Shown here piece after piece: positions 2,194 to 63,894 of a DNA stretch of 64,000 nucleotides. Below the pieces are notes generated by a model. It was not told where the DNA came from, did not search any database, and was given only the letters and a program-made list of their open reading frames with translations. Position 1 is the stretch's first letter; the number at the start of each line of letters is the position of its first letter. The position numbers and the translations under genes were made by a program. This stretch comes from Candidatus Tayloriibacteriota bacterium (GTDB taxonomy: Bacteria > Patescibacteriota > Minisyncoccia > Phycocordibacterales > SIBU01): NCBI GenBank assembly GCA_016188455.1, contig JACPHR010000010.1, forward strand, positions 3,655 through 67,654, given 5' to 3'.

Positions 2194-2307
2194 AAGGTAA
2201 ACATACCAATCTACTAATACATACAAATCTGCGAATAACTACGAATAAGAAAAGGCCGAATTAGCAGTTATTAGTAGTATTAGTATAATTCGTATATTAG
2301 TATGACG

Positions 2308-3060
2308 CTAGCTTATCATTTTGCTTATGGCGGCGAGAGTTTCTTCCGGGCCGGAAACTTGAAGGGTGTCGCACACGCCGATGACGGAGTCGTCATTGCC
2401 GCCGGAAAAAAGGGCGTCGCCTATATAGATGGAATCTTCAGTCTTCCAGCCGTAAAACTTCATGAGCTGGGAAATGTTATAGCCTTTATTTTTACCCCGA
2501 CGAAAATAGTCAAAGGATGTCGTGCCGCCGATTTTAACCTCGAGTGTCTTGGACGAAAAGGGAATTTTTTCAAGAATACTGGTGCGCAATTCCACCTTCG
2601 GGTCAAAACGCTCTTTGCGCGTCAGTTCCGCGTTGTGGCCGACAAGGCTGAAGGTAATCTGACAGCCACGGTCTTGAACAAGGTCGTGCTCGTCAACGTC
2701 AACGAACAATTCTTTGAATTGGCGGCGAATGAGGCCAATGTGCTCCATCATTTCTCTTTTTTCGCCCTCCGACAAATTGTTCCTCCATAAATCTTTGCGG
2801 TCCTTGGCCACGGCGTAATTGCCGTTTTGCGCCAACACAAAGACTTTACCGCTAAAATCAACGCCGACTTGCTTCCAAATTTGCTCAATCTGGGCGCCGG
2901 AAACCACGACCACGTCTTTGGTCGCGCACAACTTGAAAAGCGCCGCTTTCATTTGAGGCTCAATCAGCGTCCGGCTGCGGGTCAATGTTTTATCCACGTC
3001 AAAAAAAACATGCTTGTAAATTTTGCCTTGCGAATCCAAAACCGCGTTGAAGTTTTTCAT
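2308..3060 (-). CDS. HAD-superfamily hydrolase (Cof-like, HAD-IIB)
   Basis: N-terminal FFDVDKTLT (DxDxT) motif and a C-terminal GD....D motif. 250 aa. Confidence 0.7.
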   Translation of the reverse strand: MKNFNAVLDSQGKIYKHVFFDVDKTLTRSRTLIEPQMKAALFKLCATKDVVVVSGAQIEQIWKQVGVDFSGKVFVLAQNGNYAVAKDRKDLWRNNLSEGEKREMMEHIGLIRRQFKELFVDVDEHDLVQDRGCQITFSLVGHNAELTRKERFDPKVELRTSILEKIPFSSKTLEVKIGGTTSFDYFRRGKNKGYNISQLMKFYGWKTEDSIYIGDALFSGGNDDSVIGVCDTLQVSGPEETLAAISKMIS

Positions 3061-3346
3061 AATCTAAAGTATAGCAGAGGTATAGACTGCCACAAAACTG
3101 ATTACTCACCGTAAAAATTGCTTTAAAGTTGATTTTTCCAAAGTTGAAGTTTTCAACATATGCGGATTAAATAAACTTAGGAAAATGCGTTTCCCTATTC
3201 GTGTGTTTCTATTCGTTAAAACTATTCGCATGCCAATGTCTGAATTATTCGTGTGGGCGTATTTGTAACGCTATTCGCATGCCAAATTTTGACTCTGAAA
3301 CAACTTGCCGTATAATGCTATGACTTATCATAAAATTTCAACCGCC

Positions 3347-3583
3347 ATGCGTAGCGTAACAATTTACAGCACCCCCACCTGCCACTTCTGCCACCTGGCC
3401 AAGGATTTTTTCAAGCTAAACAACATCGCTTACACCGATAAAAACGCCGCGGCCGACCCGGTGGCCCGCAAAGAAGCCATCACCAAATCTGGCCAGATGG
3501 GCGTGCCGGTCATTGATATTGACGGCGCTATTGTGGTCGGTTTTGACGAGCCGAAATTACGCAAGCTTTTGGAAATAAATTAG
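3347..3583 (+). CDS. glutaredoxin-like (Grx/NrdH family) protein
   Basis: VTIYSTPTCHFC CxxC thioredoxin-fold motif. The track ORF begins at TTG 3305; in-frame ATGs lie at 3320 and 3347; a tataat box sits at 3310-3315. Confidence 0.7.
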   Translation: MRSVTIYSTPTCHFCHLAKDFFKLNNIAYTDKNAAADPVARKEAITKSGQMGVPVIDIDGAIVVGFDEPKLRKLLEIN

Positions 3584-3607
3584 AAACCTGCTGTTGCACG
3601 GCCACGA

Positions 3608-3644
3608 GAACCACTCCGTCCCGCACTGCGGGACGGAGTGGTTC
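3608..3644. terminator. GC-rich hairpin between convergent genes (bidirectional terminator candidate)
   Basis: gaaccactccgtcccgc-actgc-gggacggagtggttc, a 16-bp stem, followed by a T-rich run. Confidence 0.45.
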
Positions 3645-3685
3645 TGCTTTCCTAAATTCTGCCTATTCCCTAACCCCATCCTCTC

Positions 3686-6600
3686 CTACCGCGCTGTGGA
3701 GCTATTCAGTTGCTTCTGAAGTTCTTGGACGCGCTTGATGGCCTCATCAATTTGTTTCTCCAAAGCTTCCCGCGCCGCTTTTGAAGCGCTGGAAGCTCCT
3801 GCTGAAGTTTCCACCGTGGCGGCGGGCGCACTGGCCGCGCTCATCGCTTTGAGTTGAGCCCGGGTTTTAGGACCAACATCACCATAGCCGCTGTCTCCCG
3901 GATTGGCAATACCATATTTCACTTGGAATCGGCCGACTGCCCTTTGAGTGGCCGGGCCGAAGAAGCCGGTGGCATCGCCTTCAGGGTACAGCTCTTTGTC
4001 TGCCGAAAGGAATATCTGCAAAGCTTTCACGTCATCCCCTCTGGCGCCGCGAACGAGGCCCCGAGTGATGTTCGGCGCGCCGGCGGAGACTCCGGACGAT
4101 GGTGTCGGAGCGGCAGGAGGGGCCGCCGGAACTTGAGCGTTTTCCTTGAAGACTTCATTAATCTTTGCCCGAGTGGCCGGACCGAGTTTGCCCGCGCCAG
4201 CCGACTTTTCACTCTTGATTACTCCGTGCTTTAGCTGAAAGGCCTTAAGCGCTTTTTCAGTCAGAGGACCAAAGAAACCGGTTTGTTCAACGGCTATGAG
4301 AGCCTGCAGACGTTTGACATCCTCCCCTCGGGCTCCACGGGTCAGGTCTTTATTGAAGACCGGGGAAACCAAGCGGGCGGTCGCGGATGCTTGCGCTACT
4401 GACGCCGCCGGTACGGTAACGGCCGCCGGCGCCGGGGTTGAGGTTTTAAACTTCTTGTCAAGCTCCGCTATCTTGGCCGCCGCGCCGACTTCGTCAAGAT
4501 AGACTACCGTACCGTCAGGATAAATCTTTTGGGCGCGTGGGGCAGGAGCGCCAGTACCGCCGCCTCCGCCGCCGCCAGGGGCGGCATTGCCGGCGTTGGC
4601 CGACACCGTGGCGCTCACCGCGCTTGAGGCGGCTGATTCTGAGGCGCCGCTAGATTTGTAAGCCGAAATCTTGTAGTAGTAGGTGGTGCCGGCCGTTACT
4701 GACGTATTGGAATAACTAAGAGTGCTGCCTCCCGATATGTTGGCGAGAAGGGGGAACGAGCCGGTAGAGCTGGTGTCTCTGTAGATGTAGTAACCCTCGG
4801 CGGTGGAAACCGTTCCCCATGAAAGCGCAATGGGGCTGCCGTCCGTCACTCCGGCAGTGGCCGTGAGGCCGCCGGGCGTATCGGGCGGCGAAACGCCGAC
4901 TTGAGACGACAGAGCGTAGGCCGAGAAGTGGGTGCCTTGGGCGGCAAAGGTTACGGATGAGACATTGGAAAGGTCGGCGGAGGGCGACGCCACGGCGGCA
5001 CCGGTGGAATCTTTATAGGTCGGCACGGTAGAAAGCGTTTCCCAGTCTCCCTTGTCGGCGCTGTACGACATTACGGTAAGCTTGTTGACTGCGGTTGTGC
5101 TGGTAATGCTGGAAGAAGTAAGTTCCGCCTTGGTGTAGGTCAATTCAATATCGGCTTTCTTGCCGGTCTGGAGGTTCGTCACCTGACTGCCGCCCGAGAA
5201 GGCGCTGATATCCTTGGCTTTGCTCCCGATAATGTTGACACTGGAGGTGTTCGGATAGTTGCTGGTTTCCTTGGCCGTGATATAAGAGCTGTTGCCTGAA
5301 GCGCCCAAGGCGTTGGCGTCAAGATTGACCTTGGTGTTGACGGAAGCGTCAGAAAACGAACCGGCAGAAGTGTCCGTGAAAGTATTTGAGGTAGCAAGCT
5401 TGGACGAAAGCGAGGATGCCGTCGTGAGCGCCACATTGATGCCGGTTTGGGAACTGTTAACGGTAACCGGATTGGAAGCGGAAGCTCCTTCCGCATAGCC
5501 GTCGGCGGCGGCAAAGACTCTCCAGTTGCCCGGAGTGACGTTTAAGGTATAGGCGCCGCTAGTATCAGTTTGGGTAATCGCCTGGCCGCCGCCGATTTTA
5601 CCGGCGCGGACGAAGGAATTGGCCGCCGCCACGCCTCCGGCCGTGACCGTGCCGGAAATCGTAAGCGAGGATGCCGTCATAATGAAGTTTTGAGTGGTGG
5701 TGCCTGAAACCGTCACCGTTACGGGTGAAGCGACGTATTGGGGTTTGGATACCAGTACTTGGTAGGTGCCGTTCACGGCCTTAATGCTGTAACCGCCGGT
5801 GGAAGTGGCCTGGGCGCCGAACTGCACGCCATTCGTCTGGTCAACGAACTGAATCCAAGCGCCGTCAAGTTCGTTGCCGGCCGTGGCCGCTGTTTTGTAG
5901 ACCGTGCCCGCAATGTTGCTCAAGGCCGCGCCGGTGGACGAAGTGTTGACGGTAATTTTGACCGCTTCGGTGGCATGGCTAACGGAGAGATTGCCGCTTG
6001 ATACGGTGGTCTGCGCGCCGTCTGAGGCCACGGAAATGTTTGCCGGCGGAATACCTTGAATGTAGGCCCGGATGGAAGGCGTGGTGCTTGAAGCGATTAA
6101 GAGCGAGGTGGTTGAAGCGTTGGTAATTTCAATGTGGTTGCCCAAGCCGGTGGTTTTGTCAAAGAGGTCAACGAAGGCCTTGGAGACGACCAGCGGGTTG
6201 CCGTCTGAGTCCTTGATGGTGAAGTTGACGGTGCTCCGAACCGGTACGCGGATGTACTGATTGGTTGATGAAGCGCTGAGGTCAATGGTACCGATAGCCG
6301 TACCCGCGCTGTTATACGCCGCAAGCCTGCCGTAGGACGGCGAGAAGATGTCTCTGATGGTATAGCCACTGGCGGATGGCACGCGGATGGAGAAGGCTCC
6401 GTCAGCGCCTGAAACGCCTTCGTTGACGCTGGTGCTGTTGGAAAGACGGATGACGGCGCCGACAATGGCCTCGGTGGTGGTGGCGTACTTGTTGTTGTCA
6501 TCCAAATCCTCGTAGATATTGCCAGAGTAAATACTGAAACTTTGACTGGAGGAGGGGGCGAAGTTGATACTGGACTGGCTCGCGCCGGCAATGGTGACAG

Positions 6601-9600
6601 TTTGCTCGGCCATCGGTCCGAAACCGGGGATAAACGAGTTGACTTTCCAGGTGGTTGGATTGGCCGCAGTTCCATCCACATAAAGCGTGTAGTTGCCGGT
6701 GGAAGAATCAGTCATGGCATCGGCGCGGCCCGGGCCGTCGGTGCGATAGGCGAAGACCGGCGCGTTGCCCACTGGGTTAGTGCCGTCCGTCACTTGGCCG
6801 GTGATGGTGTACCCCGGCTTGACCATTTTAAGGATGAAAGGATTGGCGCCGCTTGAACCGGTGGAGGCGGTCGGAGAACCGTCAATATAGAATACGTCAG
6901 TTCCGGATGAGTCCATGACTACCGTTACTTTTTTGGATTCGCCGATACCGGGCGAGTAAGCGCCAACCACATAGGAACCGGCCACCACTTTAATGGAGAA
7001 CGTTCCTGAAGTTGAAGTTTGGGTGTTGCCGCCCAAACCGCCGCCGCTATCCGTGTTGGGCGAGAAAGCGAAGACCATGGCGTTCGCTATGGAATTGCCG
7101 CTGCCGTCTTTGAGCACGCCGGAGATGGTTTTATTGGCGGTGGAAATCGTAAAGGTATTTGATGTGGTCGCGAAGCTGTTAACGCTTGATACGCAAGCGC
7201 TTGGACAGCCGGTTACCGTCACATTTATCGCTTTTGGCATAGACCAATTCGGCATGGGAGGCGGGCCACTGAAGCCGCCAGATGTGCCTTTCGGCATGGC
7301 GGGTCCGATACCGATGCCCCAGCTGCCGTTAAACTGCGGAATGGGAATGACGGTCAGAGTTGAAGCCGTCAGAGCCGAAGCGCCGGGCGTAACGGTGCGC
7401 ACCACGAATTGTCCGGGACCGCCGGCGAAGACGTCCACATTTTCGGTCGCCGTAAAGGTATTGGCCGCCGCGGTCAGCCTGACCGTGAAGTTAATGGCGG
7501 ACGAGGTCGCCGTCAGCGCAAAGTTCCTGGTGATGATGGAAGAAGAGGTAGCCTGCACCGGCGTGGGCATGGTGTTGCCGAAGAAGGCGGTGGTAGTAGC
7601 GCCATCGGCATCGCTTACCCCGCTTACAAACGGGTCAGTAAAGAGCATGTAGTGGCTGCCGCCGCCGAAATTGTTCGTCAGAAACTGCGAACCGACAGGC
7701 AGGTTGGAGAAGGTGAAGAGGCCGGTTGAGTCAGTGACGGCGTCAATCGGTCCGGTCTGGGGAGACATTAGGTGAATGGTCGCTCCCGTCAAGTTGCCGC
7801 CGTTGCCCGAAACTGTGCCTCGGATAGTGGTCACCGCTCCGCCGCCGGCCGCGCCGCCGCCGATGTAGATGGGATTGCCGCTGAACGACTCAAGAAGCGT
7901 GCCGTCCGATTTCTTTGATTTAATGTCAAGCACATAGCCGGAGCTGTCCATGCCTTTCGGAATGGAAGGATTGACCATGTCCGCGAGCGAGAATTTAAGG
8001 AAATCATGTTCATCGTTGCCGCTCTTCCTGGTGCCGGTAATGCCGGAACCGGTGGCCTTGAGCGTCAAGGTGATGGTCTTGGCAGTCGAGCTCGTCGCGA
8101 TAGCACTGATGCCGATAGTGCCGTCGCTTGAGCCGTTGATATCGCTGTTGACGGAGGCGAGGAAGGGATTCTTGGCAGAAGTGGTGGCGACGCAACAAAG
8201 GCCAAAGTCGGAACTGGAAGGGAGGGTAATCACGATGCTGCCGCCGTCGTCAATCTGTTTGGCAACCGGAAGCTCAAAGGAATAGGTGGAAGAGGCGCTG
8301 ATGAAGCTGGTAGAAGGCCTGATTGAGACGGGGGGCATGAAGCCGATGCCCGAAGCGCTGAAATCCTTAATCTCGCCGAAGGTGGTGCCGGTAAAGCTTC
8401 CGGGGCCCACAAATCCGCCGGTGCCGCCGGCACCGGTGGCCGAAGAAACGGTGCAGGAACCGCTCATGGGCGCCGTAGTCGTCAAGTTCCCCGACATGTC
8501 CTTAATGTTTGTCGCCGATACCGTAACGGCGGCGCCGGAGGTAAGGCGGAGCCCCGAGAGTTTGGCTGTGCGGGTGCTTTCATCATAAGTAAGAGTGTGT
8601 CCCGCCAGCGCCGAAAGCGTCTGGGCTACTCCGCCCACCGTCAAGGTGTAGTTGGCAAGGGTGGTAGCGTCGGTTTTATTAACTGCTTCGCTGAAAGTCA
8701 CAGCGACCGTGAACTCGTCGGCGTTGACAAAGAGGATGGCCGGCCCGCTGATATCGCTGTTGGCCGCCTCAACCGTCCATGACCTGGTGACATTCGCGGC
8801 CAGAGCCGTGCCGGAAATATTTTTGAGCGCGCCGCCTTTGAGAGTCAGAACTATCGTTTGGCCGACAGGCAGCACGTTGCTTGCCGTGAAGTGGCCCTCT
8901 TTGGAAACCGGGTCGTAGCGAACGCTGCCGGGAAGGTTGGCCCCGCCGGAAATGCCCAGAGTGACGGCTCCGGAGGTGGCCGTGGCTGAGTCAATGTTGT
9001 CGTCAAAGGTGAAGACAAAGTCGTTGGTGTTTGCCGCGATGGTCGTGCTTGGAGTCGGCAATACGCCCACAATCGTCGGTGCCGTGGCATCCGTGCTGCC
9101 GCCAGTGGTAAAGGTGGTGGTGTATGCCGTTGACAGGGCAATGCCCTGGAGAGTGCGCACGCCGGTCCCGACAGTGAGAGTGTATTGGGTGTTAGCGGCC
9201 ACAGTCCCGCGAATGCCCGCTGAAAGGATATTTTTGCCGGTTGAAGTGCTAAAACTGAAACTGCCAAGCGTCAGGCCACCGGAGAGAAAAATGTTGGTGT
9301 TGGTGAAGGTCGTGGTGTCCATCGTTGACTGGTTGAACTCAATCGTGGTGGTGCCTATATTAGTCGGCACATTCTGCGAGCCGCGGAAAGGCGAAGCTCC
9401 CATGACCGCCGGCGGCGTCACGTTGGCCGAGGTAAAACCGGCCGCGCCGGTGGTAAAGGTCGCGGTATAAGACTGACTGCCCGGCGTAAAGCCGTCTTGG
9501 TCCAAAGCGTTGCCGGATAGGTCATAGACGTTTGAAGTAACGGTGAAAGTGTAGGAAGTATTGGCCGACAGAGAAGCGGTCAGGTTGCATTTGGCGGACG

Positions 9601-11113
9601 GCTCAAAGTTTGAAGGGAAGGGATTGTAGGTAACGGTGGTGCAGAGATTCCCCGTGCTGTCAGCGGTTTTTCGCAACACAACGGTCGTTGTCGCAGTTGA
9701 CGTATTCAACCAAATAATAGTGGTAGTGGAAACCGACTTGTTGAAACCAAAACCTAAAAAGGTCATGTCAATCGGCGCGTTGGTCATGCCGTTGCCCGGA
9801 AACGAGCCTTGCACTTGAAGGGTTGAAATGTCCGTGCCGCCGCCGCCGAAAGGAAACTCATGGGGACTGAAACTGTTCTGGGGATTAGCCGTTGTTTGCG
9901 CCACGAATTCGGTTTTGTTGAAATTCTTGTCAAAGCCGTTGCCTTTTGTGGAATCAACGCCGCCCGTGGCCATTGAGGCGGCAGTGGAGGTGGCAGAGGG
10001 ATAACCTGTTGCAAGACGCTCCAGCGATGAACCGTCTTCAGCGAGAGCGGTGGCGCACGGCGTAGAACTTGCCTCTCCGTTCTCGCAATTGCCAGTCTTT
10101 TGCGCTCCCCAGCCGACATAATCAATGGCCGTTGAAGTGGCGAAGGTGCCTAAACTGCTTGTGGCAATGGATACGCCGCCGTCCGCCAGGATAATGTTGA
10201 AACTGGAAGTGGCAAAGACCGCGTCAAGCGGCACCGAACCGCCGTAGCCGATCTGATTACCAATGAGAAAATAACCATACGACGGGATGACTTTTCTGTA
10301 ATAGGTCAGAGGTATGCCGGGCGTTGAACTGCCGGTGGTATAAAAGGAATGGAGCTGAAGACCTAAGTCGGAGAGGTTAATGTCCGCCTCGCCGGAGTTG
10401 TAAAGCTCCACGAACTCATCGCTGGCGTTCACGGCTGTACCCGACTTGACTTCGCTGATTTTAACCGTGGCGTTTTGATTGAGAGTAACTTTTTTATTTG
10501 AGGCCAGGGCCGTACCGACGACGCTCCCCCCAGCCGTGGTTGAAGCATAGCCCGTCTGGAGTTGCGCGTTGAACGCGTGGCCGTTGGTAATACCGGTTGT
10601 ACCAGTGGTGGATGCCACTAGATAGAAAGTGGTAGGGCTACTGCCAATACTTTCCGCGGTCGTCGGCGTAAGAACAATGAGAGTACTGTTCACAAGCGGG
10701 GTAGTAGAAGCCGCGCCAGCGATAAACGTATCGCTATCAAGCTGAAAACCAGGCTGGCCACCCGCCTCTTTCCAGAGCGAAACGCGAGATATCTCCCCTT
10801 GGGACATGGTGGTTGAAGCGACGATCTGGACTCCCACTTTGCTCAGGGTGTCATTGCCAGTAGACTGGACTAGTTGAAAGTTAAGCAGTGGAATAATCGC
10901 GCCGCCGCCAATGGTGGTAGACGCAAAGAAAGCATCCGTAGGCGGCGCCACTTCGGTAATGGCGGCCGAAGCGGTGGAAGCGCCGAGCGCCAAAAGCAAA
11001 GCGGCAGACAGAAAAATACACGCCTTAAGAGCGTGCTTTCTAACTCGCGACCCCAACCTAAAAGCTCTTGCCATTAAAATGCTCCCGGACCCGACATTGG
11101 AAATGAAAATCAT
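3686..11113 (-). CDS. giant (2475 aa) secreted cell-surface protein: signal peptide, LTD (lamin-tail) domain, Ig/FN3-like Thr/Ser-rich repeats, two C-terminal peptidoglycan-binding (PG_binding_1-like) domains
   Basis: N-terminal signal peptide (LLLALGASTASA). LTD motif SDEFVELYNSG. FN3-like segment (GYYIYRD..). Poly-Gly linker. Two C-terminal repeats of G.RG.DV..LQ..L....GFFGP.T..A...FQ..G. A coiled-coil tail. The start could also be Met14 (11074). Confidence 0.85.
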   Translation of the reverse strand: MIFISNVGSGSILMARAFRLGSRVRKHALKACIFLSAALLLALGASTASAAITEVAPPTDAFFASTTIGGGAIIPLLNFQLVQSTGNDTLSKVGVQIVASTTMSQGEISRVSLWKEAGGQPGFQLDSDTFIAGAASTTPLVNSTLIVLTPTTAESIGSSPTTFYLVASTTGTTGITNGHAFNAQLQTGYASTTAGGSVVGTALASNKKVTLNQNATVKISEVKSGTAVNASDEFVELYNSGEADINLSDLGLQLHSFYTTGSSTPGIPLTYYRKVIPSYGYFLIGNQIGYGGSVPLDAVFATSSFNIILADGGVSIATSSLGTFATSTAIDYVGWGAQKTGNCENGEASSTPCATALAEDGSSLERLATGYPSATSTAASMATGGVDSTKGNGFDKNFNKTEFVAQTTANPQNSFSPHEFPFGGGGTDISTLQVQGSFPGNGMTNAPIDMTFLGFGFNKSVSTTTIIWLNTSTATTTVVLRKTADSTGNLCTTVTYNPFPSNFEPSAKCNLTASLSANTSYTFTVTSNVYDLSGNALDQDGFTPGSQSYTATFTTGAAGFTSANVTPPAVMGASPFRGSQNVPTNIGTTTIEFNQSTMDTTTFTNTNIFLSGGLTLGSFSFSTSTGKNILSAGIRGTVAANTQYTLTVGTGVRTLQGIALSTAYTTTFTTGGSTDATAPTIVGVLPTPSTTIAANTNDFVFTFDDNIDSATATSGAVTLGISGGANLPGSVRYDPVSKEGHFTASNVLPVGQTIVLTLKGGALKNISGTALAANVTRSWTVEAANSDISGPAILFVNADEFTVAVTFSEAVNKTDATTLANYTLTVGGVAQTLSALAGHTLTYDESTRTAKLSGLRLTSGAAVTVSATNIKDMSGNLTTTAPMSGSCTVSSATGAGGTGGFVGPGSFTGTTFGEIKDFSASGIGFMPPVSIRPSTSFISASSTYSFELPVAKQIDDGGSIVITLPSSSDFGLCCVATTSAKNPFLASVNSDINGSSDGTIGISAIATSSTAKTITLTLKATGSGITGTRKSGNDEHDFLKFSLADMVNPSIPKGMDSSGYVLDIKSKKSDGTLLESFSGNPIYIGGGAAGGGAVTTIRGTVSGNGGNLTGATIHLMSPQTGPIDAVTDSTGLFTFSNLPVGSQFLTNNFGGGSHYMLFTDPFVSGVSDADGATTTAFFGNTMPTPVQATSSSIITRNFALTATSSAINFTVRLTAAANTFTATENVDVFAGGPGQFVVRTVTPGASALTASTLTVIPIPQFNGSWGIGIGPAMPKGTSGGFSGPPPMPNWSMPKAINVTVTGCPSACVSSVNSFATTSNTFTISTANKTISGVLKDGSGNSIANAMVFAFSPNTDSGGGLGGNTQTSTSGTFSIKVVAGSYVVGAYSPGIGESKKVTVVMDSSGTDVFYIDGSPTASTGSSGANPFILKMVKPGYTITGQVTDGTNPVGNAPVFAYRTDGPGRADAMTDSSTGNYTLYVDGTAANPTTWKVNSFIPGFGPMAEQTVTIAGASQSSINFAPSSSQSFSIYSGNIYEDLDDNNKYATTTEAIVGAVIRLSNSTSVNEGVSGADGAFSIRVPSASGYTIRDIFSPSYGRLAAYNSAGTAIGTIDLSASSTNQYIRVPVRSTVNFTIKDSDGNPLVVSKAFVDLFDKTTGLGNHIEITNASTTSLLIASSTTPSIRAYIQGIPPANISVASDGAQTTVSSGNLSVSHATEAVKITVNTSSTGAALSNIAGTVYKTAATAGNELDGAWIQFVDQTNGVQFGAQATSTGGYSIKAVNGTYQVLVSKPQYVASPVTVTVSGTTTQNFIMTASSLTISGTVTAGGVAAANSFVRAGKIGGGQAITQTDTSGAYTLNVTPGNWRVFAAADGYAEGASASNPVTVNSSQTGINVALTTASSLSSKLATSNTFTDTSAGSFSDASVNTKVNLDANALGASGNSSYITAKETSNYPNTSSVNIIGSKAKDISAFSGGSQVTNLQTGKKADIELTYTKAELTSSSITSTTAVNKLTVMSYSADKGDWETLSTVPTYKDSTGAAVASPSADLSNVSSVTFAAQGTHFSAYALSSQVGVSPPDTPGGLTATAGVTDGSPIALSWGTVSTAEGYYIYRDTSSTGSFPLLANISGGSTLSYSNTSVTAGTTYYYKISAYKSSGASESAASSAVSATVSANAGNAAPGGGGGGGTGAPAPRAQKIYPDGTVVYLDEVGAAAKIAELDKKFKTSTPAPAAVTVPAASVAQASATARLVSPVFNKDLTRGARGEDVKRLQALIAVEQTGFFGPLTEKALKAFQLKHGVIKSEKSAGAGKLGPATRAKINEVFKENAQVPAAPPAAPTPSSGVSAGAPNITRGLVRGARGDDVKALQIFLSADKELYPEGDATGFFGPATQRAVGRFQVKYGIANPGDSGYGDVGPKTRAQLKAMSAASAPAATVETSAGASSASKAAREALEKQIDEAIKRVQELQKQLNSSTAR

Positions 11114-16412: not shown

Positions 16413-18683
16413 ATGAAATTATTGATCGTTGAATCGCCGGCGAAGGCGAAAACCATTTCAAAATATCTGGACGGCCTGCCTGCGCCTGCCGGCGCGAAAG
16501 CAGGCGGGCAGGCGGGCCGGTACATCGTCAAGGCTTCCGTCGGCCATGTCCGCGACCTGCCAAAGAGCAATAAAAACGCCATTGACATTGAGGGCGGCTT
16601 TGTGCCCCATTACGAAATTTCCAAAGGCAAGGAAAAGGTGGTCTCTGAGATAGAGGCTTTGGCCAGGAAGGCGGACACCGTGCTCTTGGCCACCGACCCC
16701 GACCGCGAGGGCGAGGCCATTGCTTGGCACTTATCCGAGCTTATAAAGGATAAGCTCGGAGAATCACGAATCAAGAATCACGAATCAAGAAGACCGATAC
16801 AGAGGGTGGTGTACCATGAAATAACGAGGGAGGCCATAAAAGAGGCTTTGGAGCATCCGCGAGACATTGACGAAAACTTGCGGCGCGCTCAGGAGGCGCG
16901 GCGGGTTTTAGACCGTCTCGTCGGCTACGACCTCTCCGGCCTGATTTGGAAAAAAGTGCGCTACGGCTTGTCCGCCGGCCGGGTTCAGTCTCCGGCTCTG
17001 CGCATTTTGGTGGAACGGGAGCGGGAAATTCGCGCCTTTAAGCCGGAAAAATTTTTCGTCATCAGCGCGGAAGTGGAAAGCAAAACCGGCGGTCGGTTCA
17101 TGCTTTTCTGCGTGGCAGAACCGCGCGACAAAGGGCTGGTGGAAAAAATCCTGGCGGCGGGCCGGCGCGAAGATTGGGTCGTTAAAGAGATTGCCGAAAC
17201 CGAAGCCAAGCGAACGCCGAAGGCGCCTTTCATCACCTCCACTCTCCAGCAAACCGCGAGCTCGCGGCTGGGATTCGCCCCCTCGCGCACCATGGGCATC
17301 GCCCAAAAACTTTACGAAGCGGGACTGATTACCTACATGCGCACCGACAGCACCACTTTGTCCGCCCACGCCCTGGCCCAAATCGGCCCGGCCATTCTGA
17401 AAAAATTCGGCGCCGGCCTCCACCAAAACCGGGTCTTCGCCAAAAAAAGCAAGAACGCCCAGGAAGCCCACGAAGCCATCCGCCCGACCAATCTTTCTCT
17501 GGAATCCGCCGGCGCGGGAAACGAGGCCCGCAAGCTCTACCGTTTGATTTGGCAGAGGACAATCGCCAGCCAAATGATTGACGCCAAAATTTTACGAAGC
17601 AAGATTACTGTCAGGGTCGGCACGGGCCCCTCGCCTGCGCTCGGGGCAAGCGAAATTCCGGACTTTGCCGTGGGCGGCTCGCGGTTGCTTTCCCCCGGCT
17701 GGCTCTTGGCCGACCCCGAAGCGCGGGGCGAGGATGTTGAACTGCCGAAAGTTTCCTTGAACGAAAAACTAACGCTCCTTCAACTGAAAACGGAAGAAAA
17801 AGCGACGGAGCCGCCGCCGCGCTACAGCGAAGCGGGTCTGGTCAAAGAGCTTGAGAAGCGCGGCATTGGCAGGCCCTCAACCTACGCCTCCATCCTCAAA
17901 ACCATTGAAGACCGGGGCTACGTGACCAAAGAAAACAAAGCCTTGAAACCGACGGATACCGGCGAAGTGGTCAGCGGCTTTCTGGAAGACAATTTTCCGA
18001 CTTACATTAGCGACAATTTTACCGCGGAGATGGAAGACAAACTTGACGATATCGCCGTAGGAGCGCGTCAGTACGAAAAAACTCTTGAGGAATTTTATAA
18101 ACCCTTCCATAAGGAAGTAAAAGCCAAGGAAAAGGCGGAAAAAGCCACCAACCTTGGAGAAGGCCCGAAAGAATTTTCCTGTCCGGTCTGCGACGGGCCC
18201 ATGATTATAAAACTCGGCAGGAGTGGAAGATTTTTAAGCTGCGCCAAATTCCCCGATTGCTTGGGCGCCCGCGCCATTGACGGCAAGGAACTTGAAGGGC
18301 CGAAAGAAACCGGCGAACTCTGTCCGGAATGTAAAACCGGCAAACTGGTTGAGCGCGACGGCAAGTTTGGCCGCTTTATCGCCTGCTCCAATTATCCGAA
18401 ATGCAAATATGTCAAGAAAGACGAGGCGCTGGAAAAGCAAAACTCAACCGGTGTCCTCTGCCCCGTCTGCAAGGAAGGCTTCATGACCGAGCGCCGCGGC
18501 CGATTCGGCCTTTTTTACAGCTGTTCCAACTATCCCAAATGCAAAAACGCCATCAAAGCCAAACCGACCGGAGCGCTCTGCCGCCTCTGCGGCGCGCTGA
18601 TGATGGAAGGCACGAAAACCATCCCCGAAAGATGCAGTAATAAAACTTGTGCCAACCATAACCCCCACAAACTCGCGAAGTAA
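16413..18683 (+). CDS. topA: DNA topoisomerase I with C-terminal zinc-ribbon repeats
   Basis: MKLLIVESPAKAKTISKYL Toprim N-terminus. Four Cys4 zinc ribbons at the C-terminus. An in-frame ~15-aa insert (LPAPAGAKAGGQAGR) is encoded by a GC-rich palindromic element. Confidence 0.95.
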   Translation: MKLLIVESPAKAKTISKYLDGLPAPAGAKAGGQAGRYIVKASVGHVRDLPKSNKNAIDIEGGFVPHYEISKGKEKVVSEIEALARKADTVLLATDPDREGEAIAWHLSELIKDKLGESRIKNHESRRPIQRVVYHEITREAIKEALEHPRDIDENLRRAQEARRVLDRLVGYDLSGLIWKKVRYGLSAGRVQSPALRILVEREREIRAFKPEKFFVISAEVESKTGGRFMLFCVAEPRDKGLVEKILAAGRREDWVVKEIAETEAKRTPKAPFITSTLQQTASSRLGFAPSRTMGIAQKLYEAGLITYMRTDSTTLSAHALAQIGPAILKKFGAGLHQNRVFAKKSKNAQEAHEAIRPTNLSLESAGAGNEARKLYRLIWQRTIASQMIDAKILRSKITVRVGTGPSPALGASEIPDFAVGGSRLLSPGWLLADPEARGEDVELPKVSLNEKLTLLQLKTEEKATEPPPRYSEAGLVKELEKRGIGRPSTYASILKTIEDRGYVTKENKALKPTDTGEVVSGFLEDNFPTYISDNFTAEMEDKLDDIAVGARQYEKTLEEFYKPFHKEVKAKEKAEKATNLGEGPKEFSCPVCDGPMIIKLGRSGRFLSCAKFPDCLGARAIDGKELEGPKETGELCPECKTGKLVERDGKFGRFIACSNYPKCKYVKKDEALEKQNSTGVLCPVCKEGFMTERRGRFGLFYSCSNYPKCKNAIKAKPTGALCRLCGALMMEGTKTIPERCSNKTCANHNPHKLAK
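16473..16518 (+). mobile_element. in-frame GC-rich palindromic mini-element (family E-like) inside topA
   Basis: ggcctgcctgcgcctgcc..gcaggcgggcaggcgggcc, an inverted repeat of the CCTGCC/GGCAGG type also seen at 23614 and 57688. It encodes an insertion absent from canonical TopA N-termini. Confidence 0.45.
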
Positions 18684-18821
18684 ATTTGGGAGCACGCAAC
18701 CTGCGTTGCGTGCGCAAGGGGTTTTCGTGAGGCGGAGTCATGTTTCGTCAGCGGACGAAACGGACGAGCCGGGGTCGCGAAAAATCCTGCTCGACGGAGC
18801 AGGGTTTATTTGTGACCGAAG
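18684..18821 (+). repeat. family A structured repeat unit (3 hairpins, 138 bp) inserted at the topA 3-prime end
   Basis: Homologous to the three tandem units after tRNA-Lys (40271-40676). Conserved linkers gcgcg.ggcggag and gacgagccggggtcg. Compensatory changes keep the hairpins intact. Confidence 0.6.
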
Positions 18822-18887
18822 ACGATTCCCGAACGTTGCTCCAACAAAACATGCGCAATGCACAACCCTCATAAACTCGCGAAGTAA
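18822..18887 (+). repeat. displaced duplicate of the last 66 nt of topA
   Basis: Translates to TIPERCSNKTCAMHNPHKLAK*, against the in-gene TIPERCSNKTCANHNPHKLAK*. About 80 percent nt identity; the differences are mostly synonymous. Confidence 0.6.
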
Positions 18888-18951
18888 TGAAAAAGCGTGG
18901 AGCCTGCTAATGAAGCCCCTTGCCCGAGATATCCCGTTGCAGTAGCATATA

Positions 18952-22025: not shown

Positions 22026-22224
22026 ACGCTCGTCAAGGCGACCCACCCAACTCGCTGCAGACGCATCTGCGTCGAAGCGGGCGGGAGTCAGGTAGGCAAA
22101 ATCACGCGGGGCAATCTATGAGAGTTTGATCCCCTCCTCGCCCACCACTTGTGCTAGATTTTCTCCCGCGTCACCATCCCCACGTGACTACTGCTCAGTT
22201 CACAAGCAAGATTAATTCCCCGCT

Positions 22225-22258
22225 CTTATATTCTAATTCGCGCGAATTAGAATATAAG
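22225..22258. promoter_or_regulatory. 34-bp perfect palindrome (ArsR-type operator copy / bidirectional terminator) downstream of arsR-like gene 1
   Basis: cttatattctaattcgcgcgaattagaatataag. Confidence 0.5.
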
Positions 22259-22268
22259 AAAAACAATG

Positions 22269-22529
22269 CTATAAAACCTTCAGCACTGATTGAATGACTG
22301 CGGGAGATTTGCCATTCAGAAAATAGTAAACCTCAAGAGCCTGCTGGCGCTTGTCCAGAATATCAGCGCGAGAGAGTATATTGAGATGCTTCGAGGTCGA
22401 GGTGAATGACAGTTTAATCTCATCGGCGATTTCTCCCACTGTTGCCTCATGTTCCTTTTTCAGAAATGCAACAATGGCAAGACGTCTGCGATTCGCCATG
22501 GCTTTCAATACTCGCTCATATTCTTTCAT
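22269..22529 (-). CDS. ArsR/SmtB-family winged-HTH transcriptional repressor (paralog 1)
   Basis: 86 aa. RLAIVAFL..TVGEIADEIKLSFTSTSKHLNIL motif. 69 percent identical to the paralog at 23659. Confidence 0.7.
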   Translation of the reverse strand: MKEYERVLKAMANRRRLAIVAFLKKEHEATVGEIADEIKLSFTSTSKHLNILSRADILDKRQQALEVYYFLNGKSPAVIQSVLKVL

Positions 22530-22553
22530 GGTACTATATATTATACCGGTACT

Positions 22554-22575
22554 TTCTAATTCGCGCGAATTAGAA
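22554..22575. promoter_or_regulatory. 22-bp perfect palindromic operator in the divergent arsR-like-1 / miaA promoter region
   Basis: ttctaattcgcgcgaattagaa, about 25 bp upstream of the arsR-like start. A tatatat -10-like sequence lies between. Confidence 0.55.
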
Positions 22576-22602
22576 AATGATGAATTTGTGGATAAGCATC
22601 AC

Positions 22603-23589
22603 ATGGAGGCGAGTTTTGAGAAATACATGAGAAGAGCTGATAAAATTATCATTATTGCTGGGCCGACGGCGGTCGGAAAAAGCACGCTCGCCGTTAAGAT
22701 TGCAAAGAAATTCGGCGGAGAGATTGTTTCAGCCGATTCGCGGCAGGTCTATCGCGGATTAAACATCGGCACGGGAAAAATTACCAAAAAAGAAATGTGC
22801 GGAGTACCGCATCATTTGCTTGACGTGGCGAGCCCGCGTCGCAGATTCAGCGTGGTGGAGTATCAAAAGCTCGCCCGACAAAAAATCAAGGATGTTTTGT
22901 CTATGGGCAAGCTCCCCATCATCTGCGGCGGGGCCGGTTTCTACATTGAAGCCGTCGCGGACAATGTGGCCCTGCCCGACGCGCCGCCGAATGAAAAACT
23001 CCGCGCTCGGCTCCGAAAAGAAACTCCTGAAACTCTGCTGAACCTGCTGATGAAACTTGACCCGGCCCGAGCCGAAAACATTGACCGAAAAAATCCCCGC
23101 CGGCTGATTCGGGCGATTGAGGTCGCCCGGTCTCTCGGCTCCGTTCCTTCTCCTCTTCCTCTTCAACATTCATACGTTCCCTGCCTTGCCGGCAGGCAGG
23201 CTAGGAATGTAGGAATGTCAAAGAAAGAATTCAACGTACTCTGGATCGGGCTTACCCTGCCTCCGGCGGAACTGAAAAGGAAAATTGCTATTCGCTTATT
23301 CGCGCGAATTAGAAAAGGTATGATACAAGAAGCCCGGCGGCTTCACAAAAACGGCCTCTCGTGGAAACGAATGGAGGAGCTGGGTCTTGAGTATCGCCAC
23401 CTCGCGCGCTACCTGCGAAATAAAACGTCAAAACTGGAAATGACTGATAAATTGCAGACAGAAATCTGGCGCTACGCCAAGCGCCAGCTAACCTGGTTCA
23501 AACGCAACCGGCGAATCAGGTGGTTCCAGCCAAACCAAACGGAAGAAATTAAAACGTTGGTTAAAAACTTCCTGTCAAAATCAAAATGA
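22603..23589 (+). CDS. miaA: tRNA dimethylallyltransferase
   Basis: P-loop IIIIAGPTAVGKST and the SADSRQVYRGLNIGTGK motif. The track ORF has a spurious N-terminal extension running antisense to the arsR-like gene. Carries a lineage-specific insert around 23165-23300 that includes palindrome-derived sequence. Confidence 0.85.
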   Translation: MEASFEKYMRRADKIIIIAGPTAVGKSTLAVKIAKKFGGEIVSADSRQVYRGLNIGTGKITKKEMCGVPHHLLDVASPRRRFSVVEYQKLARQKIKDVLSMGKLPIICGGAGFYIEAVADNVALPDAPPNEKLRARLRKETPETLLNLLMKLDPARAENIDRKNPRRLIRAIEVARSLGSVPSPLPLQHSYVPCLAGRQARNVGMSKKEFNVLWIGLTLPPAELKRKIAIRLFARIRKGMIQEARRLHKNGLSWKRMEELGLEYRHLARYLRNKTSKLEMTDKLQTEIWRYAKRQLTWFKRNRRIRWFQPNQTEEIKTLVKNFLSKSK

Positions 23590-23613
23590 CATCCCGCACT
23601 ATTCGCTTATTCG

Positions 23614-23652
23614 CCCGCCTGCCAAAGCCTGAGCTTGGCGATGGCGGGCAGG
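23614..23652. mobile_element. family E mini-element (TIRs only, 39 bp) inserted at the centre of an ArsR-type operator palindrome
   Basis: cccgcctgcc-aaagcctgagcttggcgat-ggcgggcagg, flanked by ttattcg | cgcgaattag. Removing it restores aattcgcgcgaatt. Confidence 0.5.
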
Positions 23653-23658
23653 CGCGAA

Positions 23659-23919
23659 TTAGAGAACAGAAATAAGATATTTAATAACAGGCACTTGTAA
23701 GTTGGTGATTTTATAAAACATTTGAAGGCTGACTTGCTCTTTTTCAAGAATTTCTGCGGCACTTAGAATAAGCAAATGTTTAGAAGTTGATGTGAAAGAA
23801 AGCTTGATGTTCTCTGCAACTGCACCAACTGACGCGACTTTCTTTTTCTTGAGGAAAGCCAGAATCGCTAACCGTCTTTTGTTCGCCACTGCCTTCAATT
23901 GTCTTTCGAGTTTTATCAT
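23659..23919 (-). CDS. ArsR/SmtB-family winged-HTH transcriptional repressor (paralog 2)
   Basis: 86 aa. RLAILAFL..SVGAVAENIKLSFTSTSKHLLIL. Confidence 0.7.
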   Translation of the reverse strand: MIKLERQLKAVANKRRLAILAFLKKKKVASVGAVAENIKLSFTSTSKHLLILSAAEILEKEQVSLQMFYKITNLQVPVIKYLISVL

Positions 23920-23937
23920 CCCTATTTTTTATTTATC

Positions 23938-23969
23938 TTATTGTCTAATTCGCGCGAATTAGACAATAA
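23938..23969. promoter_or_regulatory. 32-bp perfect palindromic operator upstream of arsR-like gene 2
   Basis: ttattgtctaattcgcgcgaattagacaataa, about 20 bp upstream of the start. Confidence 0.55.
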
Positions 23970-23992: not shown

Positions 23993-24154
23993 GGCGGGAG
24001 CTGGAGGAATCGGTCACAACTCTCGTTCTCCCGTCGGAGAACTCGGTCGCGACCCCGCCTCGTTCTCGCTCGGAACTCGCGAGATACTCCGGCTTCCGCT
24101 TCCTCTCGCGACCCAAGCAGTTGGCTCGCTCAACTCCCCATTCGGCCGCACTCA
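23993..24154 (-). repeat. family B element (~140 bp) plus 21-nt duplicate of the tRNA-Trp 3-prime end
   Basis: ggcgggagctggaggaatcgg at 23993-24013 repeats 24155-24175. The intervening sequence is ~70 percent identical to 28317-28442. Confidence 0.55.
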
Positions 24155-24228
24155 TGGCGGGAGCTGGAGGAATCGGACCTCCGACCGACGTTTTGGAGAC
24201 GTCCATTATGCCACTTAACTAAGCTCCC
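24155..24228 (-). tRNA. tRNA-Trp (anticodon CCA), CCA encoded
   Basis: Acceptor GGGAGCT/AGCTCCC. Anticodon arm GACGT-cTCCAaa-ACGTC. Atypical T-loop TCCGATT. Confidence 0.75.
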
Positions 24229-27457: not shown

Positions 27458-28057
27458 TCAAATGACGGGCCGAAGAGTTCCAGTTTGGCCAACCTGAAAA
27501 ATTTCAACGCACTTTATGAGGCGCAATCTGTATAAATCGTCAAGAAATTCCTGGGGAATTTTAACTCTTCCCATCCAAAAACTTTTTTGCACCATCTTCA
27601 GACCCAAATGCTTAAGCGCCTCGCGCAACCAGTCACGCTTTCTTTTCTCCTTTTGTGGGACGTCAAAAGCCACGATGGTTAAATGCTCACCCGACTGCCG
27701 TGGATACTCTATCAAAGGAAACCGGGCTGAAATTTGCAACTTCAGTCTGCGTTCGGCGTCTTTTCCGCGAGCAGTGATTGATAACAGTGTTTTATCGGCA
27801 TTTTTGCTTATGGCAATCAAACCGTCATGCTTTAACTTTGAAATCAATTTCTGGTATCTCAGTACAAGCTCTTTCTCTCCTACTGGAAGAGGGCGTTTAT
27901 TACTCCTCTTCTTCTGCCTTTCTCTGAGAACATAGCGGATTCTTCCCGGCGACGCGCCGTATCCGGCAATAAGAATGGCTTCGCACAGTTCTAGAGATTC
28001 TACTGCCATTTTACCGAGTGTCTGAAGAATATAAAGTGTAATGTGTCCTTTTTTCAT
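27458..28057 (-). CDS. winged-HTH + Cas2/VapD-like-fold C-terminal domain protein (PaaX-like architecture), paralog 1
   Basis: C-terminus HLTIVAFDVPQKEKRKRDWLREALKHLGLKMVQKSFW follows the Cas2 pattern (b-strand ..YDV, R..L...L...G..Q.SV.). N-terminal wHTH-like region. The paralog at 56238 shares IV.FD.PQK....RD.LRE.L..L....LQKS. ATG start, with a tataat box immediately upstream. Confidence 0.45.
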   Translation of the reverse strand: MKKGHITLYILQTLGKMAVESLELCEAILIAGYGASPGRIRYVLRERQKKRSNKRPLPVGEKELVLRYQKLISKLKHDGLIAISKNADKTLLSITARGKDAERRLKLQISARFPLIEYPRQSGEHLTIVAFDVPQKEKRKRDWLREALKHLGLKMVQKSFWMGRVKIPQEFLDDLYRLRLIKCVEIFQVGQTGTLRPVI

Positions 28058-28252: not shown

Positions 28253-28297
28253 AAAAAACTTGGAAGGACAAACGCATCTCCTGATTCCGCTTGCATG

Positions 28298-28442
28298 AGG
28301 CCACGGTGGGACTTGGTTACAGCTCTCGTCGCGCCGTCGCGCTCCTCGGCCGCGACCCCGCCTCGCTGCCGCTCTGAAACTCGCGGCGTGCTCCGGCTTG
28401 CAATTCCACACGCACGCAAAGCAGTTTGCGTGCTCGTCGCCT
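28298..28442 (-). repeat. family B element (~126 bp) plus 19-nt duplicate of the tRNA-Cys 3-prime end
   Basis: gaggccacggtgggacttg at 28298-28316 repeats 28444-28462. The insert is homologous to 24014-24154. Confidence 0.55.
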
Positions 28443-28518
28443 TGGAGGCCACGGTGGGACTTGCACCCACGTATAACGGTTTTGCAGACCGCTGCGTTGC
28501 TATCTTCGCCACGTGGCC
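28443..28518 (-). tRNA. tRNA-Cys (anticodon GCA), CCA encoded
   Basis: Acceptor GGCCACG/CGTGGCC. Anticodon arm GCGGT-cTGCAaa-ACCGT. Atypical T-loop TGCAAGT. Confidence 0.75.
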
Positions 28519-50972: not shown

Positions 50973-50974
50973 GC

Positions 50975-51090
50975 CAAAATGAAAATTGAAAAATCAAAAT
51001 GGAAAATGACAATGTAAAATCTTAAAATTTTTAATTTTGCATTGTCATTTTGATTTTTGATATTTACATTTTACATTATTATAGCCTAGT
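50975..51090. repeat. family D AT-rich repeat, empty-site copy
   Basis: ggaaaatgacaatgtaaaat ... ttttgcattgtcattttga tttttga|tatttacattttacatt. Shares 20-mer and 16-mer words with 57611-57808. Confidence 0.55.
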
Positions 51091-53608: not shown

Positions 53609-53755
53609 AGTGCTGTAATTCTAGCAAAAATAGAGGCCTTTGGCCATACCAATCTACTAATGAATACGAATCTGCGAATAACTACCAATGTGATATGCGT
53701 GGGGGTATTATTCGTAGTTATTGGCGGTATTGGCAACATTCGTATATTGGTATAT

Positions 53756-63860: not shown

Positions 63861-63894
63861 CATCACGAATCAAGAATCTTGAATCAAGAATGAG

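Follow-up and report, generated by a model that had tools for sequence, protein, structure and literature searches.

A compact structured cassette behind topA in a Taylorbacteria genome, one of a Patescibacteria family that probably replaces gene 3' ends

The topA locus

In a 64-kb stretch of contig JACPHR010000010.1 from a Candidatus Tayloriibacteriota genome (the window, meaning here that stretch in full), the gene topA ends in a coding segment that is repeated a short distance downstream, with a structured insert between the two copies. Homologues of the topA product have Toprim, Topoisom_bac and Zn_ribbon_Top1 domains and carry the name Candidatus Taylorbacteria (Parcubacteria/Patescibacteria). 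One of them, from a 70.5-kb contig of an NCBI metagenome-assembled genome, is 100% identical; an exact look-up of the protein gave no record. Loci from species-representative genomes, essentially all Patescibacteria, were used for comparison and are designated by L-numbers (L001, L003, L127 and so on). The features of the locus are listed below (nt, nucleotides; aa, amino acids).

16413..18683, + strand: topA, an open reading frame (ORF) for a type IA DNA topoisomerase of 756 aa; its final 70 nt are cassette-borne
18614..18683, + strand: copy 1, the topA 3' end in use, with stop codon; 5' segment of the cassette and foreign, nearest to copy 1 of L126, L127 and L032
18692..18713, + strand: hairpin P1 (GCACGCAAC-CTGC-GTTGCGTGC), from sequence and fold; the CTGC loop is common to the units behind tRNA-Trp, tRNA-Cys and tRNA-Lys and at many other loci
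18720..18726, + strand: internal strand GGTTTTC, complementary to the first 7 nt of the cassette itself, from sequence and helix analysis
18727..18817, + strand: conserved core of ~90 nt, from covariation and a covariance model (82.8 bits, E = 9e-18)
18818..18887, + strand: copy 2, the displaced ancestral topA 3' end
18888..18920, + strand: P1 hairpin remnant of an older cassette (GTGGAGCCTGC), which aligns with catggagcCTGCgctcca directly after the topA stop codon in L001 and L003

A repeat search of the window returned a direct repeat of 71 nt (18613-18683 and 18817-18887) with 76% identity. Its exact junctions fall between C18613 and G18614 and between C18817 and G18818, which delimits the two 70-nt copies. 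The initial annotation had reported this duplication, and the two segments do align; the repeat begins 4 nt upstream of where it had been placed. The next-best 66-mer match within the window agrees at 31 of 66 positions.

Copy 1 translates as TIPERCSNKTCANHNPHKLAK and copy 2 as TIPERCSNKTCAMHNPHKLAK, each followed by a stop codon. They differ at 16 of 66 nt, spread over 12 codons, and 11 of the 12 changed codons are synonymous, as had been noticed in general terms before; the sole replacement is N to M. The synonymous switches from copy 1 to copy 2 include Ser AGT to TCC (3 nt) and Arg AGA to CGT (2 nt). Sixteen randomly placed substitutions caused a mean of 10.5 amino acid changes, and none of 20,000 trials gave at most one change and no stop codon. 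Since random placement never matched this synonymous bias, both copies must have evolved as coding sequence, and neither is a drifting duplicate of the other. The GC content of third codon positions gives no signal (0.57 for copy 1, 0.57 for copy 2 and 0.66 for topA, with a standard deviation of 0.11).

A variable loop of topA contains a short repeat, AGAATCACGAATCAAGAATC (16760-16805), that recurs near ftsZ (63859-63890). We take this repeat to be the probable reason why the protein has 756 aa and its relatives ~735.

The original topA end

Comparison with relatives shows that the end now in use is the foreign one. The window topA is 82-83% identical to that of L003 overall. Identity is 89% in each of the last two 66-nt bins upstream of the repeat and falls to 71% in copy 1, while copy 2 is 88% identical to the in-use end of L003. 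We compared the ends over a 45-nt segment (KTIPERCS..H), together with the 450 nt upstream of the repeat. In the 45-nt segment, the in-use ends of L003 and L001 share 89-91% identity with copy 2 and only 62-67% with copy 1. Copy 1 is 84% identical to copy 1 of L126 and 78% to that of L127, L032 and L012. Identity to the window in the upstream 450 nt is 83% for L003, 79% for L001 and 72% for L127. The structured unit ranks these loci differently, being 86% identical to the L127 unit and 70% to the L001 unit. Thus, a non-coding insert is better conserved between the window and L127 (86%) than the adjacent topA coding sequence, at only 72%.

Because copy 2 matches the nearest relatives, while copy 1 and the unit match distant cassettes, we conclude that the current C-terminus of topA came with the element and that the original end was displaced. 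This agrees with what the initial annotation had proposed: across both comparisons, copy 2 is 88-91% identical to L003 and L001, and copy 1 is 62-71%. These identities show horizontal import: copy 1 and the unit arrived as one piece from another Taylorbacteria lineage.

Relatives also display the site before and after insertion. Empty sites, which the initial annotation had suggested looking for, are present in L124, L125, L128 and L129, where there is no unit; L003 keeps only the hairpin remnant. L126 and L127 have the unit and a decaying second copy, which in L127 contains an in-frame TAA; the second copy of L032 is frameshifted. In L001, the P1 that matches the remnant at 18888..18920 of the window belongs to an intact unit, followed by a still older and diverged end copy (KTIPERCSDKICPNHNPQKF...). 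We infer from these sequences a history in three steps. The ancestor of the window, L001 and L003 would have gained a cassette with a CAMH-type end, which displaced a CPNH-type end; L003 and the window lineage would then have lost most of this cassette; and the window lineage would have gained a second cassette, with the CANH-type end now in use. Metagenome scans returned no match for the empty-site allele of this species, and scans for further CAMH-type ends returned only the L001 and L003 contigs again.

Between the window and L003, the switch from native to foreign sequence can be narrowed down only to a ~20-nt stretch that is identical in both and ends at the junction of C18613 and G18614. 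On the right side, copy 2 is native from its fourth base onwards, and the second copy of L127 is only 64% identical to it. Had an L127-like donor acted through generalized homologous recombination, a donor-type copy 2 would be expected as well.

Structure of the cassette

The unit between the two topA copies is 134 nt long, has no ORF and folds stably (−74.6 kcal/mol, z = −6.5 versus shuffles). We gathered further members of its family with a degenerate sequence pattern built from conserved motifs, which lists at least 120 loci, and searched the window and these loci with a covariance model of the ~90-nt core (model R1). From 5' to 3', each cassette consists of a copy of the target 3' end, the variable hairpin P1, an internal strand that complements the first 7-20 nt of the same cassette, and the core. 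In the window, the cassette body measures ~130-145 nt, to which the carried copy is added. This copy comprises the last 70 nt including the stop codon for topA, and positions 57-76 or only the final few nt for tRNAs.

The core begins with GNRRG and continues with a 3-bp helix, an internal loop capable of tandem G.A pairs, hairpin P2, CGAGNC and a long hairpin, P3, before it ends in ...GTGACC. The 3-bp helix pairs G-N-C with G-N'-C, and its middle pair covaries perfectly (AU 42, CG 39, GC 36, UA 6). The P2 loop is commonly AGCA or AGTA. At the base of P3, GGTCGNG pairs with YGTGACC, and its tip usually has a GACG loop. Among 127 sequences, with shuffled and slid alignments as controls, 91% of cells were paired, versus 70% in shuffles and 27-47% in slid controls, and the covariation score was 0.49 versus 0.16. 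P1, upstream of the core, varies and often has a CTGC loop. A kissing interaction between the P1 and P2 loops (CUGC with GCAG) is unsupported; units with other P1 loops retain the same P2 loop. Readings of the core as a hammerhead, a hepatitis delta virus-like ribozyme, a bulge-helix-bulge or a kink-turn were tried by eye only, and none fitted.

A feature absent from the initial annotation is the internal strand directly 5' of the core, which complements the sequence after ...ACC, that is, the start of the duplicated segment. The helix formed is 6 to ~20 bp long, with a G.A/G.A step at its junction in part of the variants. In the window, this strand (GGTTTTC) pairs perfectly with GAAAACC of copy 1; with GAAGACG of copy 2, it forms one G.T wobble and a terminal mismatch. 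Copy 1 is likewise preferred over copy 2 in L001 and L032. In the 20 tRNA cassettes with a decayed second copy, the internal strand pairs with a median of 10.5 of 14 positions of tRNA 57-70, which equals the value in cassettes with an intact second copy. Because the internal strand matches copy 1 and outlasts the decay of copy 2, we conclude that the inherited unit comprises copy 1, P1, the complementary strand and the core, and that copy 2 is a relic.

G.T pairs exceed A.C pairs in the core helices (125:48) and in the outer helix (84:30), by 2.6-2.8 to 1. This suggests that the sense strand is the one that folds, either as RNA or as single-stranded DNA. The start of the core also differs with the target: all topA cassettes begin with GTGAG, T-loop cassettes mostly with GAAAG, and tRNA-end cassettes with GCGAG or GTGAG. 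These differences fit target-specific cassette lineages, to judge by the motifs.

Other copies in the window

The covariance model detects exactly six family copies in the window (E from 2e-18 to 6e-8; the next match has E = 0.05). Their cores lie at 18727-18817, 40315-40405, 40451-40541 and 40586-40674 on the + strand and at 24012-24097 and 28315-28401 on the − strand. They occupy four loci, with one unit behind topA, one behind tRNA-Trp, one behind tRNA-Cys and three head-to-tail behind tRNA-Lys. The initial annotation had linked the topA insert to the tRNA-Lys elements, to which the model adds those at tRNA-Trp and tRNA-Cys.

24012..24154, − strand: cassette body behind tRNA-Trp (24155-24228, −); core 24012-24097, 53.5 bits, ending in GTGACC
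23993..24011, − strand: second copy of tRNA-Trp positions 57-75, exact over 19 nt (GATTCCTCCAGCTCCCGCC), directly after ...GTGACC
28315..28442, − strand: cassette body behind tRNA-Cys (28443-28518, −); core 28315-28401, 40.9 bits, ending in GTAACC
28297..28314, − strand: second copy of the tRNA-Cys 3' end, exact over 18 nt (AAGTCCCACCGTGGCCTC), directly after ...GTAACC
40272..40674, + strand: head-to-tail array of three cassettes, fused to tRNA-Lys (40198-40271) at its 3' end, from the repeat search and the covariance model
40675..40775, + strand: decayed remnants of older insertions, including ...CTTGTGAC, AAATCCAAC and GAATCCAACTGGGC, read from the sequence

The arrangement at topA is the protein-gene version of this general pattern: a gene 3' end, the unit and a second copy of the gene 3' end. 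Repeated insertion at one gene builds arrays, as at tRNA-Lys. By its remnants, the tRNA-Lys locus has taken up five or more insertions one after another, with T-loop 56/57 and acceptor end 72/73 as the two positions used. Units 1 and 2 (40272-40541) share an identical 45-nt P1 module; their cores are ~72% identical by eye, with compensatory changes in the stems. The P1 and core modules of these units thus appear to differ in history. In the decayed region, GAATCCAACTGGGC (40751-40764) duplicates the T-arm and acceptor 3' strand of tRNA-Lys. The same region (40675-40775) holds two degenerate copies of the tRNA-Lys T-arm 3' strand plus decayed older units.

The tRNA-Trp gene of the window (24155-24228, −) is not orthologous to the tRNA-Trp of L001 (7970-8042) or L003 (14875-14947), which shares its miaA-rpmG location. 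The window gene differs from theirs in strand as well as in sequence, and the gene itself appears to have been replaced. The relatives' tRNA-Trp, being a different gene on the other strand, is unusable as a second empty-site comparison.

Distribution across Patescibacteria

The family occurs at no fewer than 120 loci of species-representative genomes, and essentially all of the matches listed are Patescibacteria. In the first 100 loci, model R1 adds ~30 copies that had escaped the pattern, or ~1 extra copy per 23 kb, and several loci hold 3-5 units within 8 kb. Of the 114 units with enough flanking sequence, 81 have a tRNA on the same strand within 200 nt upstream, and these tRNAs cover 35 anticodons. 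Among the 81, ...ACC is immediately followed in 37 by an intact copy (at least 15 nt) of tRNA positions 57-75, from the 3' end, while ~20 have a decayed second copy that keeps only its first 5-6 nt (GAWTCC). Sixteen tRNA-linked units are fused directly to the last bases of the tRNA, followed by AC(A). The junctions are of three types, in which ...ACC is followed by GAWTCC, ACA or GAARAC.

The gene topA is a recurrent non-tRNA site, used in the window and in L001, L012, L032, L047, L079, L119, L126 and L127. Its second copy always begins with (G/T)AARAC, which codes for the KT of GTKTIPERC. One unit, in L090 (~6900-7110), identifies rplL as a second protein-coding target. It sits at the 3' end of an L7/L12-like gene whose product ends in ...AGAKVTLK, and a degenerate second copy of the last codons follows ...TGACC. 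We show, then, that the cassette inserted in front of resident homologous sequence, that it was imported horizontally along with its copy of the gene end, that insertion recurred at the same sites, and that the displaced copies decay.

Searches for a partner of the cassette were negative. All ORFs within 2.5 kb of ~120-125 units were clustered, and no partner gene recurs; only topA, relA and assorted housekeeping genes do. A Pfam scan of 20 ORFs of the window returned housekeeping genes and no recombinase, HUH nuclease or reverse transcriptase. Scanning 2.9 million viral contigs with the family pattern gave no matches. Against Rfam 15, only tRNAs reach the gathering threshold, and nothing credible appears at E up to 10 in 40150-40900. 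The literature that was searched describes group I introns in tRNAs of the candidate phyla radiation (CPR; PMC13011429) but not this cassette.

Several other features of the window were noted. A single ORF of 2475 aa occupies 3686-11113 (−). A 199-aa protein with a Cas2-like/PaaX_M domain (27458-28057, −) adjoins tRNA-Leu(taa), with no CRISPR array seen nearby. A 34-nt palindrome, TCTAATTCGCGCGAATTAGA, occurs in four copies (22224, 22547, 23286 and 23936; span 22224-23969) around miaA and a small ORF (~23650-23920, −) that is ArsR-like (helix-turn-helix) by eye reading only; the palindromes may be operator or terminator sites. Finally, AT-rich short-period intergenic repeats form two families (CATACCAATCTACTAAT... 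and ATTTTACATTTTGATATTT...), at 2184-2303, 13882, 48052, 53645-53753 and 54063 and also at 26854, 36549, 50972-51082, 57583-57684 and 62677.

Interpretation and rival explanations

The comparisons show that the topA insert belongs to a family of small, structured insertion cassettes that lack ORFs and are widespread in Patescibacteria. As an explanation of their movement we propose, and consider moderately probable, replacement of gene 3' ends by exchange at ...ACC^N. This would be a conservative strand exchange in which the target reacts with the free cassette, probably circular and single-stranded. In this free form, the cassette 5' end would pair with the internal strand and stack on P3, so that the two cassette ends meet and the resulting helix mimics the target duplex. 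The choice of target would be set by homology or base pairing to the carried copy and not by a fixed motif. Lineage specificity for conserved targets (tRNA 3' halves, topA and rplL) would then be expected, because target choice would follow the carried copy. As at attC sites or in CTX phage, an enzyme supplied in trans would carry out the exchange, which would be resolved by replication. Two sequences are predicted by this scheme: a circular or tandem junction in which ...TTATTTGTGACC is joined to GAAAACCATCCCC... and runs on into the remainder of copy 1 and then P1, and an empty topA site in which GGAAGGCAC is joined directly to GAAGACGATTCCC.

A mechanism of a new kind is a real possibility here, though we would not expect it. 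Equally tentative is the idea of a protein-free homing element, a folded RNA or single-stranded DNA whose internal strand would serve as a programmable guide that places its own ...ACC 3' end at the target phosphodiester. The conserved 90-nt three-way-junction core might then be a new catalytic RNA, namely a circularizing ribozyme that cleaves and ligates, or a recognition module for a universal host enzyme.

Several observations weigh against exchange by such a cassette. The family has no recombinase, nuclease or reverse transcriptase associated with it, and the chemistry of the mechanism is inferred throughout; neither a free or circular form nor an excision product was seen. The tandem G.A pairs, the excess of G.T and the constant co-orientation with the upstream gene fit function or mobility at the RNA level equally well. 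If each cassette carries its own target copy, the origin of 35 tRNA specificities is unexplained, as is the persistence of the first 5-6 nt after ...ACC in copies that have otherwise decayed. The mismatch between P1 and core in tRNA-Lys units 1 and 2 does not fit simple inheritance of whole cassettes. In addition, the motifs CGGAG, CGAG, GGGTCG and TGACC are partly fixed in this set by ascertainment with the search pattern.

The best placed of the alternatives, although we think it unlikely, is that the unit acts primarily as an RNA, functional or catalytic, that is transcribed together with the gene before it. This RNA might process or stabilize the 3' end, or act as an intron-like or circularizing ribozyme that moves by reverse splicing and reverse transcription, the DNA pattern being a by-product. 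The strong covariation, the conserved unpaired nucleotides and loops, the tandem G.A pairs and the large excess of G.T over A.C all suit an RNA. Every unit directly follows a highly expressed gene and lies in its sense orientation, and the geometry of the unit sets the 3' end (...ACC) beside the nucleotide that is paired with the guide-like strand. However, second copies decay while copy 1 is always intact, so that splicing to copy 2 would be unneeded, and an RNA that benefits the host leaves the foreign copy 1 unexplained. There is no Rfam match, ribozymes and introns included, and no reverse transcriptase was seen near any unit. To our knowledge, a self-splicing RNA of 90 nt would be unprecedented. 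Group II introns are reported to be absent from Patescibacteria (PMC13011429).

Homing by double-strand-break repair ranks just behind the RNA explanation and is also improbable. Here, a nuclease encoded elsewhere or since lost would cut the target, and repair from a transformed cassette allele would follow, with the core as cargo or leftover. The outcome equals that of the mitochondrial atp6, cox2 and nad3 hybrids, in which a foreign C-terminus is used and the native one is displaced (PMC3630166). Insertion appears to occur at a precise point, in targets of high conservation, and the gene for DprA adjoins topA, which makes DNA uptake plausible. Copy 1 of topA is recoded relative to copy 2, which would guard against re-cutting. 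Yet tRNA cassettes cannot be recoded, so their copy 1 would stay cleavable. Moreover, no endonuclease ORF lies in or near ~125 units, and the conserved core and the internal complementary strand would be left unexplained.

The initial annotation had read the insert as the product of site-specific integration, either a miniature non-autonomous element or the scar of a larger one. Integration describes the topology well; as a mechanism it is putative, and no integrase or att-type enzyme was found. The miniature non-autonomous element is retained and the scar is disfavored, given the number of loci, the compact ORF-less architecture and the precise ends. A scar would imply that an integrase had brought in a larger element (prophage, integrative and conjugative element or cis-mobilizable element), which has since been lost by deletion. 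Tyrosine-integrase elements are indeed classically recognized by direct repeats that begin in the T-loop and contain the tRNA 3' end (PMC1762012). Nevertheless, we regard this origin as very unlikely: the same ~90-nt core recurs at all these loci with precise ends at both junctions and no integrase nearby, its targets include 35 tRNAs plus topA and rplL, and viral contigs hold no match. The only long interruption found, in L040, separates a tRNA-Ser(tga) from its second copy by 2.7 kb. It consists of two IS3-family insertion sequences (1190-3910; OrfA/OrfB, rve-like core) between the tRNA and the cassette core. These insertions are secondary, and L040 was rejected as a "long" version of the cassette.

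Diversity-generating retroelements (DGRs) are common in CPR, and two similar copies at a gene 3' end could suggest a DGR template and variable repeat or a local tandem duplication of the topA end followed by drift; we reject both on the substitution pattern and the foreign copy 1, as drift would not make all but one of the 12 changed codons synonymous, the differences are not confined to adenines (all base types occur and only 2-4 of 16 involve A in either copy), and no reverse transcriptase is among the window ORFs scanned. Two further identities were considered. A miniature inverted-repeat transposable element (MITE) was rejected on the lack of shared terminal inverted repeats, the target-specific flanking repeats of ~3 to >70 nt and the foreign copy 1 at topA. 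A retron noncoding RNA would share the closing helix and the first G of the core (a G fixed by the search pattern), but no reverse transcriptase lies beside any unit.

Patescibacteria genomes are among the smallest bacterial genomes. Despite this, the element occupies many of their tRNA loci, and the window alone has six units at four loci. The cassette illustrates how selfish DNA can invade genes that are essential and highly conserved without cost to them, by supplying a spare end, with the side effect that the C-terminal 21-23 residues of topoisomerase I are swapped between lineages. For annotation, second copies of tRNA or gene ends in CPR genomes are to be read as cassette relics and not as assembly errors. 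If the guide-like strand does set the target, the cassette would be a natural, very small and retargetable insertion device; if the core is RNA, it would be a widespread unclassified structured RNA. Should the nucleic-acid-guided reading be true, these units would form a previously undescribed class of mobile elements that rewrites the 3' ends of essential genes across CPR.

Comparison with known systems

Tyrosine-integrase elements at tRNA 3' ends, such as the mycobacteriophage Ms6 of the T-loop class (PMC1762012), are similar in several respects. They have a direct repeat of the tRNA 3' end that starts from the T-loop, the element supplies the part of the gene in use, and arrays arise by repeated insertion. 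The cassettes likewise have direct repeats (attL/attR) containing the target 3' end, and the gene is reconstituted by the element copy. Unlike the cassette, with its ORF-less body of ~130-145 nt and its many targets, Ms6-type elements span kilobases, encode their own integrase and use one attB. They also lack the conserved folded core and the internal strand complementary to the element's own 5' end. No integrase was found in or beside the cassette: no ORF fits 134 nt, none is enriched across ~120 loci, and none of the 20 window ORFs encodes one.

The mobile-ORF gene hybrids of fungal mitochondria (Allomyces atp6; Glomus atp6, atp9, cox2 and nad3) show the same identity pattern: the native C-terminus is ~91% identical to that of a relative, and the duplicates are ~64% identical to each other with mostly synonymous differences (PMC3630166). 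There too, the foreign C-terminal copy is in use and the native one is displaced. However, these hybrids encode a LAGLIDADG or GIY-YIG homing endonuclease that drives their mobility, whereas the cassette has no ORF and mostly targets tRNAs.

The integron attC is a folded single-strand site that is defined mainly by structure and served by a trans-acting enzyme (PMC2727003, PMC3458562). Like attC cassettes, the units described here are small and promoterless and form arrays that all point in one direction. Their first bases can pair with a box before the structured part, and the putative crossover would lie at the edge of that helix. This outer-helix topology matches the attC type on paper, with no recombination observed. 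In contrast to integrons, there is no IntI among the window ORFs scanned, no attI and no GTTRRRY core site found. In addition, the core sequence of the cassette is conserved, the strand that apparently folds is the sense strand, and the cargo is a gene end and not a gene.

The attP hairpin of CTX-phi and other Xer-exploiting elements also use a folded single strand and a host enzyme in trans (PMC3442271, PMC3089051). As in CTX-phi, the single strand has two inverted target-like copies, separated by ~90 nt, whose pairing can imitate the chromosomal target duplex. The cassette is, however, ~50 times smaller and not a phage. No dif-like XerC/XerD arms are apparent in it, as judged without a dif consensus for these hosts, and the change of target from one cassette lineage to another speaks against a single dif-like site.

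MITEs, repetitive extragenic palindromes and bacterial interspersed mosaic elements (REP/BIME), and palindromes derived from IS200/IS605 share with the cassette that they are short, non-coding, hairpin-rich and present in many copies without a transposase of their own. The cassette differs in that its copies have no common terminal inverted repeats. Its duplication, of ~3 to >70 nt, has a fixed left edge and is not a target-site duplication of fixed length. Its position and orientation behind gene 3' ends are strict, and copy 1 at topA is foreign, so the duplication was not made by insertion. What is new here is thus a CPR-wide, mainly tRNA-targeting family with a covarying core and a self-complementary, target-matching strand, which is kin to the integrative and homing elements that replace gene 3' ends.

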